A stretch of DNA of 64,000 nucleotides, from contig CAYGFH010000001.1 in the NCBI GenBank assembly GCA_964349125.1, forward strand, positions 772,801-836,800, in the 5' to 3' direction. Both the position numbers and the translations under genes were made by a program. The notes under the pieces were generated by a model. The model made no database searches, was not told the origin of the DNA, and saw nothing but the letters and a program-made list of their open reading frames with translations. Shown piece by piece: positions 40,765-44,095 of this stretch (its first letter is position 1; each line of letters begins with the position of its first letter). This DNA is from an uncultured Gammaproteobacteria bacterium (GTDB lineage: Bacteria > Patescibacteriota > Microgenomatia > UBA10105 > UBA927).

Positions 40765-43700
40765 ACGCAATAAAGTTGACAATGGATGCCCTGGGTATTC
40801 ATGCCGAAGAAGGACGTATATAACAGCGATATTCGTCGGGGAGGAGTTATAATCCATCGATCCGGCGGTTTCCGAATGGAGCAATCCCGTTATCGCGAGA
40901 TAATGACTGTGTCGTAAAGATAGCCGCAAGGCTAAGGTAGCGGCATGGAGGATACCATCTGAACTGAAACATCTAAGTAGGGTGAGGAAAATAAATCAAT
41001 AGAGATTCCGTCAGTAGCGGCGAGCGAAAGCGGAACAGCCTAAACTCAATCGCAAGATTGAGGGTTGTAGGGTCAGTGATATGTGATGACAGATTGATAA
41101 TAGAACACCTCGGAATAGGTGACCAAAGAGAGTGAAAGTCTCGTACATGAAATCAATGTGTCCGCTAACTGATTCCTAAGTACCATGGAATATTTGAATT
41201 CTGTGGGAATCCGGGTCGACCACGATCCAAGGCTAAATACATGAATACACCGATAGTGAACAAGTACCGTGAGGGAAAGGTGAAAAGCACCCCGGAAGGG
41301 GAATGAAATAGTACCTGAAATTGTCAACTAACAAGCAGTGAGAGCCCCGCAAGGGGTGATCGCGTGCCTATCGAAGAATGATCCGGTGAGTTACCCGTCA
41401 ATGCAAGCTTAACTCTGTACAACAGAGGGAGGCGTAGTGAAAGCGAGGCCTAATTGGCCGAATAGTATTGGCGGATAGACCCGAAACCAGGTGAGCTAAC
41501 CATGAGCAGGGTGAGATTCATCGAAAGATGAAAGGAGGCCCGAACTCGTCAGAGTTACAAATCTGTGAGATGACTTGTGGTTAGGGGTAATATGCCTATC
41601 GAACCTGGAGATAGCTGGTTCTCCCCGAAATATATTTAGGTATAGCGGTACATTATTCAAACGTAGTGGTAGAGCACTGACAGAAGCGTGATTCGCAAGG
41701 ATCTTGCCTCTATCAAACTCCGAATACTGTCGTTTGTACTGTGCCAGTCAGACATGCACGGCTAAGCGCGTGTGTCAAAAGGGAAACAACCCAGATTCAC
41801 ATCTAAGGCCTCAAAATGTATGCTAAGTGGTTAAGGAAGTCATGGTTTTAAGACACCCAGGAAGTTGGCTTAGAAGCAGCCATCTTTTAAAGAACGCGTA
41901 ACAGCGCACTGGATGAAAGCCGCGGCGCCGAAAATGATCGAGGCTCAAGCATACTGCCGAAGGTTGAACCGCCAACGTAAGTTGGTGTGGGTAGGGGAGC
42001 GTTCTTACAGCAGTGAAGCATACACCGTAAGGTGGTGTGGAGTGGTAAGAAGTGAGAATGCCGGAATGAGTAGCGTTTGAAGGTGAGAATCCTTCATGCC
42101 GAATGCGCAAGGTTTCCGAAGCAACGTTCGTCGTCTTCGGGTAAGTCGGAACTAAGACGAGGCCCATATTGTGGGCGTAGTTCGATGTATAAACGGTTTA
42201 TATTCCGTTACAAGTATATGTTGATTAAGACTCAAGGGAGTGACAGAGGAGGATTGGTCTCGCAGTCGATTCGTTGGCTGCTAAGCTTCAAAATAGTGAT
42301 GACAGGCAAATCCGTTATCGCGTTTAATTTAAGAAGCAGGGAAGTCTAAACCGAAAGGGGCGGGCAACAGAGATAGTTTTGCTCTCAAGAAAAGCTTCAC
42401 TGAGAAACATATATTTTCCGTACCGCAAACCGACACTGGTGCGCTGGTAGAGTATACCAAGGCAAGCGGGTGAGGGTGGTTCAAGGAACTCGGCAACAAA
42501 AACTAGGCGTAACCTATGGGAGATGCCTTGCCACGAGCAATCGTGGCTTCAATTAACGACACAAAGCGACTGTTTAACTAAAACACAGGTCTCTGCGAAG
42601 CGGAAACGCAACGTATAGGGGCTGACACCTGCCCAGTGCCGGTAAGTTAAGAAAGGTTGGTGATTTTTCGCAAGAGAAAGAGCTGATTTTTCAAGCTCCG
42701 GTGAACGGCAGCAGTAACTATAACTGTTCTATGGTAGCGAAATTCCTTGTCGGGCAAGTTCCGACCCGCACGAATGGTAGAACGACTTTGTGACTGTCTT
42801 GAACCATTACCCGGCGAAATTGAAATGGCTGTGAAGATGCGGCCTACTTACACATGGACAAAAAGACCCCGTGAAGCTTTACTGTAGCTTGGCACTGAGG
42901 ACTTTATTTTGACTGTCGAGAATAGGTGGGAGCCTTTGGGCGAAATATGGAATACCACTCTTCGAAATGAGGAAATCTTACTTACTCCTACATAAAAATC
43001 TAGGAGAAGAACACTGTCTGGTGGGCAGTTTAACTGGGGAGGTTGCCTCCAAAAATGTAACGGAGGCGTACAAAGGTTGGCTAATCCTGAATGGAAACCA
43101 GGACCTGTCGTGCAAACGCGATAAGCCAGCTTGACTGCGAGACATACAGGTCGAGCAGATGCGAAAGCAGGTGTTAGTGATCCTCGCATCCCTCGTGGGA
43201 GGGAGCGGGCTTAACGAATAAAAGCTACTCCGGGGATAACAGGCTGATCGCTTCCGAGAGTCCATATCGACGAGGCGGTTTGGCACCTCGATGTCGGCTC
43301 ATCCTATCCTGGGGCTGGAGAAGGTCCCAAGGGTCCGGCTGTTCGCCGGTTAAAAGGGTACGCGAGCTGGGTTCAGAACGTCGTGAGACAGTAGACCATA
43401 GTATGTGACCATACTATATGAGCTGTCCGTTTTTCGACATTCTACATGAACTCCATCGAGATATATATCACTGTTATAAAAACTAAAAAACACCCCGCTA
43501 TGCATTATATGTATGATGTAGGCGGGATAAATCTGACTATTTGCTGGAAACACCGAGTATCCACTGGTACCCCGACTATTTTGTCGAGGGTGACAATCTA
43601 TGTGGTGCGGTCAATCAGCAGGGAAGGCCCCGACGTGTGTCGTGGGAACCCTCAGAGACTACATGTCAGACCCTGAGCTTGTCGAAGGGAAGATATAGTC

Positions 43701-44095
43701 CGAACTTTATGGCGACATAAAGATATATCCAAAAGGGAAATACCCTGCGGGTATACTCATCTCTACGCTGTTTCGATAAGAATCGAAGCCAGCTACAGCT
43801 GTGTAACATATTTGTCGGTCTCTATCCTGTGTGAGCGTAAGATTCTTGAGGGGCGATCTCTCTAGTACGAGAGGACCGAGAGGTACAGATCCCTGGTGTG
43901 CCAATTGTCGGAAAACCGGCAGCGTTGGGTAGCTAGATCTGGAAGGGATAAGTGCTGAAAGCATCTCAAGCACCAAGCCCACCCCAAGATGAGGAATCGT
44001 TATAGACCCCCAGTAGATGACTGGGTTGATAGGCGAGAAGTGTACGCACCGTGAGGTGTTTAGCTTACTCGTACTAATTGGTCGAAGTTGTGGAG
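40765..44095 (+). rRNA. 23S ribosomal RNA interrupted by one group I intron
   Basis: GGATGCCCTGGG, GAACTGAAACATCTAAGTA, TAGCGGCGAGCGAA, GTACCGTGAGGGAAAGGTGAAAAG, GGGGATAACAGGCTGAT and GTCGGCTCATC blocks all in order. Ends inferred from the helix-1 pairing GTTCTCTGCAAC / GTTGTGGAGAAC. Confidence 0.9.
43393..43814 (+). other. group I self-splicing intron (no ORF) in 23S domain V, after ...GTGAGACAGT
   Basis: Exons rejoin to GTGAGACAGT|TCGGTCTCTATCC, which matches the E. coli 23S sequence. Intron shows R element TCAGAGACTACA (43652-43663), S element AAGATATAGTCC (43690-43701), IGS-like GCTGTC pairing the exon GACAGT, a terminal G, and a 5' exon ending in U. Confidence 0.8.

Follow-up and report, generated by a model that had tools for sequence, protein, structure and literature searches.

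A group I intron without an open reading frame between U2604 and U2605 of the 23S rRNA gene of a probable candidate phyla radiation bacterium

The 64-kb stretch of contig CAYGFH010000001.1 analysed here (the window) carries a 23S rRNA gene at 40759..44096 on the + strand, preceded by a tRNA-Ala(UGC) gene (40367-40442) and followed by a 5S rRNA gene (44326-44442; Rfam, 83.9 bits). The 23S gene is made up of 2916 nt of exon sequence and a 422-nt group I intron (43393..43814, + strand, 43.8% G+C) that lacks an open reading frame (ORF) and is the subject of this work. A match to the Rfam model LSU_rRNA_bacteria (2317 bits, full length, model positions 1-2925) encloses and spans the insert. The junctions read GTGAGACAGT|AGACC...ATTTG|TCGGTCTCTATCC, and once the insert is removed the exons form a single ungapped alignment over the junction with every E. 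coli 23S copy. An earlier note on this DNA had placed a 422-nt insert in domain V of the 23S gene at 43393-43814; its coordinates were exact to the nucleotide, the exons being collinear with E. coli 23S rRNA.

The insert is recognised by the Rfam group I intron model (Intron_gpI, RF00028) at 43453-43722 with 65.8 bits (E=1.8e-14 over the entire 64-kb window, model positions 1-253), against a gathering score of 50 bits. Apart from this family, Rfam yielded no match in the insert, even at a permissive threshold. Thus the group I identity claimed in the earlier note, for which an Rfam search had been suggested as a check, is upheld, and the covariation described below agrees with it. The elements that the note had recognised also lie where it had put them: the R element TCAGAGACTACA at 43652-43663, the S element AAGATATAGTCC at 43690-43701, an internal guide GCTGTC at 43422-43427, a U before the 5′ splice site at 43392 and a terminal G at 43814. 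We found all the diagnostic features of a group I intron, namely a P1 helix with U·G at the splice site, a P7 helix with a bulge and in pseudoknot with P3, covarying P4–P6 and P3–P8–P9 domains, and a positioned terminal G. With regard to subgroup traits, P2 and P2.1 are present, while P7.1/P7.2 and a clear P5abc are absent. The minimum-free-energy fold of the intron has a z-score of –4.3 against dinucleotide shuffles. In an ENA assembly of another sample, a contig (L002) matches the window at 100% identity from 43274, through the intron and into unique downstream genes, which shows that the insert is no artefact of a single assembly.

The insertion site was determined with the annotated E. coli rrl gene as anchor. 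The rrl copy used is 2903 nt long, and standard numbering (2904 nt) equals copy numbering plus one. Four landmarks were located, whose standard numbers we take to be A2451 in GGAUAAC, G2553 in the A-loop UGUUC, A2602, and A2660 of the sarcin-ricin loop. All four fell one position low in the 2903-nt copy, which calls for the +1 correction and makes U2604 the last exon base; the intron thus lies between U2604 and U2605. Complementarity reveals a local rRNA hairpin, AACGUC-GUGA-GAC(A)GUU. This hairpin is helix 93 with A2602 bulged, and the intron separates two paired bases of its 3′ strand, two bases from A2602 in the peptidyl-transferase centre.

Alignment with E. coli 23S rRNA, proposed in the earlier note as a way to fix the exact position, did so within domain V, but it contradicted the note on the site itself. 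The note had taken the insertion for that of the Chlamydomonas Cr.LSU intron, host of I-CreI, at about position 2593. The insert follows U2604, and the Cr.LSU junction ACGU|CGUG (2593/2594) is uninterrupted at 43381/43382, 11 nt upstream of the insert. Helix 93 is therefore split in its 5′ strand by L2593 introns and in its 3′ strand by the window intron. The note's reading of the 5′ exon flank as part of the I-CreI site holds in that the 2604 junction and this flank presumably both fall inside the 22-bp recognition sequence of that enzyme, although the position of insertion differs. Since the insertion site, the defining trait of the Cr.LSU/L2593 family, is another one, the window intron is not a member of that family; the correct site label is L2604, not L2593.

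Introns at this site were surveyed by scanning one genome per GTDB species with the pattern ACGTCGTGAGACAGTV, in which the exon end is followed by any base but the normal T. At least 119 loci were obtained. An insert at exactly the 2604/2605 junction is present in at least about 49 genome loci; about one third of the loci, labelled Elusimicrobia/Endomicrobia, show just a natural U2605A variant, and a few are chance matches outside rRNA. Practically all inserts listed have GCTGTC near the 5′ end and a 3′ end of the form ...UAACAnnnnUG|UCGG, like the window copy. The 2604 junction is common to all 70-odd homologues listed, and the guide GCTGTC lies within the first 70 nt in 72 of the 74 distinct introns listed. 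These 74 introns share with the window the guide, J2/3-P3, P4–P6, the R and S elements, P9 with a GCGA loop and the UAAC...UG end. Intron lengths are bimodal among the matches listed (253–460 nt and 696–852 nt). Core identity of the window intron to 21 aligned relatives is 49–67%, with no clear nearest neighbour. Two ORF-containing copies (L052 and L016) scored below the Intron_gpI gathering threshold, presumably because an ORF of about 500 nt splits the model.

A site with these properties is known from the candidate phyla radiation (CPR, or Patescibacteria). In a census of 348 CPR 23S genes, insertions were present in 82%, and 45% of the insertions were classed as group I introns by the Rfam model (Tsurumaki et al. 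2024, J Bacteriol; PMC11270868). Among the recurrent sites listed in that census is position 2604, named 23IS13 and associated with LAGLIDADG_1 ORFs, and shorter ORF-less copies, highly similar outside the ORF, occur at the same sites. By insertion site, by sequence and structure homology and by CPR host (see below), the window intron belongs to the L2604 family, which is the CPR site 23IS13.

The structure of the ribozyme was modelled helix by helix (coordinates refer to the + strand). The 5′ exon strand of P1, GACAGU (43387..43392), is complementary to the internal guide GCUGUC (43422..43427), the 3′ strand of P1, with U2604 forming a U·G wobble at the 5′ splice site. The P1 loop contains a hairpin, L1 (AUAGUAUG, a UGAC loop and CAUACUAU; 43398..43417), which shows compensatory changes in relatives. 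On either side of it lie the two parts of a putative P10 guide: GACC (43394..43397), complementary to GGUC at positions +3 to +6 of the 3′ exon, and UGA (43419-43421), which can pair with UCG at +1 to +3. Judging by this complementarity, P10 would consist of 6 bp formed by GACC and UGA with the start of the 3′ exon, UCGGUC (43815..43820, U2605 onward), and would be split by the L1 hairpin. Invariance of the exon leaves no room for covariation in P1 or P10. AGAC is invariant in the CPR subfamily, and GACC or AACC stands ahead of the guide in most members of the whole family.

The peripheral 5′ domain (43429..43526) comprises P2 (43429-43434 with 43478-43483), which covaries, and the P2.1 hairpin (43494-43526). 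It is followed by the 5′ strand of P3, UCUGAC (43532..43537), whose partner GUCAGA is found at 43665..43670. P4 (43543-47 with 43615-19) encloses P5 and an extended P5a (43543..43619 in all) that has a conserved internal loop, GUGACAAU, at 43590-43597; P6 (AGGG/CCCU) with a short P6a hairpin occupies 43620..43652. The guanosine-binding helix P7, in pseudoknot with P3, is made of G(A)GACUA in the R element (43655..43661) and UAGUCC in the S element (43696..43701), and P8 (CCCU...AGGG, 43671..43689) lies between the 3′ strand of P3 and the S element. After CCG, the AA of J7/9 (43703..43704) forms a 2-bp P9.0 with UU at 43812-43813, immediately before the terminal G. The P9 hairpin (43705..43722) is capped by a GCGA tetraloop of the GNRA type (43712-43715). 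The peripheral hairpins P9.1/P9.2 (43724..43805), for which we have single-sequence folds, vary among relatives. The intron ends with a UAAC motif (43804..43807), present in 72 of the 74 distinct introns at the site, and the omega-G at the 3′ splice site (43814), family members ending in ...UG|UCGG.

This model is supported by comparative data. RNAalifold applied to five relatives recovered P1, the L1 hairpin, P3, P4, P5, P6, P8 and P9, with the exon strand of P1 paired in 5/5 of them. When the hand-written structure of the window intron (P3–P9, including the P7 pseudoknot) was projected onto 22 aligned family members without an ORF, standard pairs were found in 91.3% of cells, compared to 32–37% when the 3′ partners were slid by 1–3 columns. 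Compensatory changes on both sides were seen in 43 of 59 pairs, and none of 500 shuffles reached the observed value of any measure. The level of support by helix was 100% of cells paired in P3 (5/6 pairs compensatory), 83–98% in helices 2–5 of the P4 and P5/P5a region (16/21 pairs compensatory), 98.5% in P7 (with UA↔CG and AU↔GC exchanges), 90% in P8 (4/4 pairs compensatory) and 100% in P9 (4/7 pairs compensatory, GCGA loop conserved). P9.0 covaries as well: 67 of 71 introns can form it (at the variable pair, A-U in 40, G-C in 13, U-A in 10, C-G in 3 and G·U in 1). Covariation in P2 includes GUUUUU/AAAAAC, GUUUUC/GAAAAC, UCCCUU/AAGGGA, UUCCUUC/GAAGGAA and other combinations.

Three motifs are invariant or nearly so: UAAC, located 7–11 nt ahead of the terminal G; GAC in the L1 loop (43407-43409) within the CPR subfamily; and GUGACAAU in P5a. 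No pairing partner could be assigned to the UAAC motif when one was sought. These three motifs may serve as receptors for the GCGA tetraloop of L9 and the GAAA tetraloop of L9.1. We also observed a sequence, ACAGCT, at 43795-43800 that resembles the 5′ exon and pairs with the internal guide in the minimum-energy fold of the intron without its exons. Such a mimic could compete with P1; it is probably a chance event and is not conserved in relatives.

The 5′ part of the intron defines a sub-architecture within the family. Among the matches listed, the four hosts nearest to the window by identity of the 23S 3′ exon (L047, L036, L063 and L081) have introns which, like the window copy, begin with AGAC(C), a hairpin in the P1 loop, GAGCUGUCC, P2 around a conserved segment, and a P2.1 hairpin. 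Scanning of metagenomes for this 5′ signature revealed 31 further contigs with introns of 324–852 nt at the same junction, at least nine of which contain an intact LAGLIDADG gene of 167–178 aa. All 26 distinct members of the subfamily fold independently into the L1 hairpin, P2 and P2.1 in minimum-energy predictions despite differing sequences. The L1 hairpin in the P1 loop is a hallmark of the CPR sub-architecture, and the P2/P2.1 domain is missing from the minimal family members of 253–320 nt. In passing, we note that the window 23S gene has a single intron and that its relative L047 has a 5.1-kb 23S gene with at least two group I introns.

On neither strand does the window insert contain an ORF longer than 76 aa, in agreement with the claim of the earlier note that it is ORF-less and too small to encode a homing endonuclease. 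Its long relatives encode single-domain LAGLIDADG_1 proteins of about 150–190 aa (Pfam E-values from 1e-14 to 1e-23), whose best PDB matches are halves of I-OnuI/I-SmaMI-type enzymes and not I-CreI. In these relatives the ORF sits in the P6 loop and reads through elements of the ribozyme core: its N-terminal motif ADNQQ(E/G)RP is the translated P4′/P6 strand CAATCAGCAGG, and in many copies its C-terminal motif SSETIRR is the translated R element TCAGAGACTA. The same frame in the window reads AVNQQGRP-RRVSW-EPSETT, with about 15 nt between the two core-encoded motifs. No endonuclease remnant was detected in the window intron or in other short copies, where tblastn matched just these core-encoded end motifs; matches to ADNQQ.RP and SETIR were rejected as remnants, being encoded by the ribozyme core (P4′/P6 and the R element, respectively).

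Encoding a LAGLIDADG_1 protein is a frequent but not obligatory trait of the L2604 family, and the window copy lacks it. As ORF-less copies are reported at the same sites (PMC11270868), this absence does not exclude membership in 23IS13. We observed nearly identical intron backbones with and without the ORF: about 800 nt in L127 and L134 versus 350 nt in L152 and L047, and 805 nt in L133 versus 363 nt in L144. Such pairs are what one would expect if the endonuclease gene were gained and lost, a pattern that PMC11270868 reports as well.

We compared the window intron with known systems. It fits the description of 23IS13 introns in every tested respect (position 2604, CPR hosts, group I identity by Rfam, association with single-domain LAGLIDADG_1 proteins), and nothing essential differs; introns at this site, ORF-less ones included, have been on record for CPR since 2024. 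The published work is a census (PMC11270868), whereas the helix model, the covariation of P9.0, the L1/P2/P2.1 sub-architecture and the overlap of the ORF with the core come from the present analysis. The name ‘L2604’ was not found in connection with a group I intron in the literature searched, and the census writes ‘position 2604’.

The Cr.LSU intron of the Chlamydomonas reinhardtii chloroplast (L2593, I-CreI) is similar in occupying the same helix-93 hairpin in domain V and in belonging to a family with single-domain, homodimer-type LAGLIDADG proteins. The window intron differs from it in lying 11 nt downstream, in its guide sequence, in its bacterial host and in lacking an ORF. With the Tetrahymena LSU intron it shares the R/S consensus (…AGACUA… / AAGAUAUAGUC), a bulged A in P7, P2/P2.1, the U·G pair at the 5′ splice site and the omega-G. 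The Tetrahymena intron is nuclear, is inserted at L1925 and carries other peripheral domains; a P5abc with an A-rich bulge is not recognisable in the window intron. Bacterial 23S introns have earlier been described at positions 1917, 1931, 1951 and 2593. Those of Thermotoga, Coxiella, Simkania and thermophilic cyanobacteria, as cited in PMC11270868 (references 27–30), lie in domain IV or V, often have LAGLIDADG ORFs and have organellar kin. A blastn search of phage genomes with the intron gave two 35-nt matches to the S/P9 core, which are uninformative on its origin. These matches, of 89–92% identity, fall in unannotated DNA of Vibrio phages (KX507046.1:102894-102929 and MN497415.1:69241-69275), stretches that are likely to be unannotated phage group I introns.

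The host is taken to be a CPR bacterium from the neighbourhood of Microgenomates/Gottesmanbacteria, as suggested by the relatives of its RadA protein, by synteny and by 23S identity. The named relatives of the window RadA, at about 75% identity, are proteins of Candidatus Gottesmanbacteria and of the ‘Patescibacteria group’. The gene order 23S-5S-rpsA-(SET-domain gene)-radA is common to the window, L047 (Patescibacteria), L036, L063 and a Gottesmanbacteria locus (L017), and the full-length 23S sequences of the window and L047 are 84.6% identical. A gammaproteobacterial host, which is the label of two of the closest metagenome-assembled genomes (MAGs), was rejected on the grounds of the rpsA/radA synteny and the named RadA relatives. 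The labels ‘TPA_asm: uncultured Gammaproteobacteria’ of L036, L063, L015, L108 and L110 look wrong: all five have CPR-type L2604 introns, and L036 and L063 also share the rpsA-radA order and 66–75% protein identity with the CPR window. The contigs of the closest relatives by RadA (85–93% identical) end inside rRNA or have no rRNA. In one of these relatives (L156:143-3900, RadA 89% identical) a DUF4434 gene precedes rpsA in place of the 23S-5S genes, which indicates that the position of the rRNA locus is not fixed within the lineage. No 16S gene was seen within the window, 40 kb upstream or 20 kb downstream of the rRNA locus; thus, the 16S gene is unlinked to the tRNA-Ala-23S-5S locus.

Given the sequence features, structure, covariation, site and family membership described above and the lack of an ORF, we are highly confident that the element is an ORF-less group I intron between U2604 and U2605, in helix 93 of a CPR host; it is predicted to be removed by two-step splicing. 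The chemistry and the excision in vivo are proposed from general group I biology, from analogy with the Tetrahymena LSU intron and because helix 93 is not compatible with an insert of 422 nt. In the precursor rRNA, the guide GCUGUC would pair with the exon end GACAGU to form P1, placing the U2604·G wobble at the cleavage site. The P3–P8 and P4–P6 domains would fold around P7, which would bind a free guanosine, and the bound guanosine would attack the 5′ splice site. P9.0 would then set the terminal G (43814) into the same pocket, with P10 (GACC and UGA against UCGGUC) aligning the 3′ exon, and the freed 3′-OH of U2604 would attack, joining the exons and restoring helix 93. Since a copy without a homing endonuclease cannot home by itself, the window intron may persist by vertical descent, or sister introns in the same community may supply LAGLIDADG enzymes that mobilise it in trans.

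As the insert lies in a paired stem beside A2602 of the peptidyl-transferase centre, rRNA that kept it would probably not function. That helix 93 and A2602 are so placed is a matter of established ribosome structure. The same conclusion was reached for the domain V introns if left unspliced, and earlier evidence that CPR rRNA insertions are missing from transcripts is cited in the same paper (PMC11270868). Several points weigh against this explanation. Splicing in the source organism is deduced from sequence. P8 is short, having 4 bp and a possible tandem G·A, and the GAAA tetraloop found on P9.1 in most relatives is missing, so that folding of the window copy may be less robust or call for a helper protein. 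A group I intron in the 23S rRNA of Simkania is reported to be unspliced (reference 28, as cited in PMC11270868); hence, excision cannot be assumed from sequence alone. Finally, our view is that of a 64-kb window, and a second, intron-less 23S copy elsewhere in the genome would escape it.

These points bear on two alternatives concerning function. It is conceivable, though unlikely, that the intron splices only with help, either from a host protein or from a LAGLIDADG maturase supplied in trans. The weak P8 and the replacement of the usual GAAA-capped P9.1 speak for such a dependence, as does the ability of LAGLIDADG proteins from group I introns to serve as maturases (background in PMC11270868). 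On the other hand, there is no LAGLIDADG gene within the intron (the rest of the genome was not searched for a maturase), the core is complete in other respects, and conservation of the L1/P2/P2.1 domain in the subfamily points to stabilisation by RNA only. We consider it very unlikely that the element has a group I fold without self-splicing, being either retained in mature 23S rRNA or excised by an RNase without ligation to leave a fragmented 23S rRNA. The Simkania precedent and the many non-intron insertions in CPR 23S genes, thought to be cut by RNase III, lend this some weight, and excision of the window intron is for its part read from the DNA. Yet the U·G pair of P1, P7, P9.0, the omega-G and P10 are all intact and under purifying or compensatory selection, which would be pointless in an unspliced insert, and retention or a nick within the helix-93 stem by A2602 would be hard to reconcile with a working peptidyl-transferase centre. 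An RNase III-processed intervening sequence (IVS) was rejected outright because of the complete group I core and the location in the helix-93 stem; an IVS is a simple extended stem at a helix tip without a ribozyme core, and the known sites are helices 9, 25 and 45.

Two other alternatives concern what the insert is and where it came from. The flank CGTCGTGAGACAGT of the 5′ exon lies, we assume, within the I-CreI recognition sequence, as it would for a Cr.LSU-type (L2593) intron related to that of the Chlamydomonas chloroplast that had lost I-CreI. L2593 introns do occur in CPR (PMC11270868), and an L2593-type allele is present in a scaffold of the close relative L063. This origin is nevertheless extremely improbable: the sequence ACGT|CGTG at 2593/2594 is uninterrupted with the insert following U2604, the guide GCUGUC is complementary to GACAGU, whose last base is 2604, but not to the stretch that ends at 2593, and the listed homologues all have the 2604 junction. 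We give practically no credence to an assembly artefact in which an intron-bearing fragment of another organism was joined chimerically into the window 23S gene. rRNA operons are classic mis-join points, the contigs of the nearest relatives break inside rRNA, and the L063 scaffold mixes alleles; but the assembly of another sample is 100% identical over the intron and 119 nt of upstream exon and continues into unique downstream genes, and the four hosts nearest by 23S 3′-exon identity (among the matches listed) share the sub-architecture at the same site. We therefore retain the reading of a splicing L2604 group I intron.

Homologous introns at the identical 2604/2605 junction, with the shared guide and UAAC...UG end and many with a LAGLIDADG ORF, were found in at least eight phyla other than CPR, the hosts being assigned by the titles of MAG records. 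They comprise Actinomycetota (L012, L016, L020, L027, L096 and L105, including megabase long-read contigs and a chromosome), Armatimonadota (L052, L074 and L067, including Capsulimonadaceae chromosomes), Omnitrophota (L007, L019 and L104), Planctomycetota (L048 and L120), Dormibacteria of the Dormibacterota (L035), Kofleriaceae of the Myxococcota (L033), Acidobacteriota (L077) and Pseudomonadota (L009 and L070). An ORF-less copy from Actinomycetota (L020:1415-1707) scored 65.9 bits with Rfam Intron_gpI. No paper describing the distribution of L2604 introns outside CPR was found in the literature searched. We lean slightly towards a single coherent L2604 lineage with a single-domain LAGLIDADG gene, which would have spread horizontally to at least eight other phyla and one Endomicrobiales genome, and whose CPR branch would have gained the L1 hairpin, P2 and P2.1, a 5′ domain that splits the P10 guide from the P1 guide.

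Some further observations were made at the same hairpin. The scaffold of L063 (397-513) joins two alleles over a run of N, one with the L2604 intron and the other with the 3′ end of another group I intron, which ends ...GTATG|CGTGAGACAGTTCGG, an L2593-type junction; both intron types appear to circulate at this hairpin in the L063 population. The U2605A substitution (GACAGTACGGTC) without an insert was seen in L006, L011, L018, L030, L045, L065 and about 30 other Elusimicrobia/Endomicrobia loci listed, and in the Endomicrobiales genome L116 the A variant occurs together with an L2604 intron. In a Pedosphaera MAG (L121:130-270), a 21-nt unit, CACGTCGTGAGACAGTCCGTC, is repeated in tandem about six times and by coincidence contains the helix-93 sequence; this locus is a false positive of the survey pattern and not an rRNA gene.

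The window intron itself is ordinary, as rRNA insertions are the rule in CPR 23S genes (82%; PMC11270868). In practical terms, annotation pipelines and rRNA phylogenies must splice out 43393-43814. What is gained is a covariation-backed secondary-structure model of the L2604 family and the recognition of an endonuclease ORF that reads through the ribozyme core. If true, the spread beyond CPR would mean that group I introns in bacterial rRNA genes are not limited, contrary to the current view, to a few thermophiles, intracellular pathogens and CPR, and helix 93 would be a pan-bacterial hot spot of homing for which L2593- and L2604-type elements compete.

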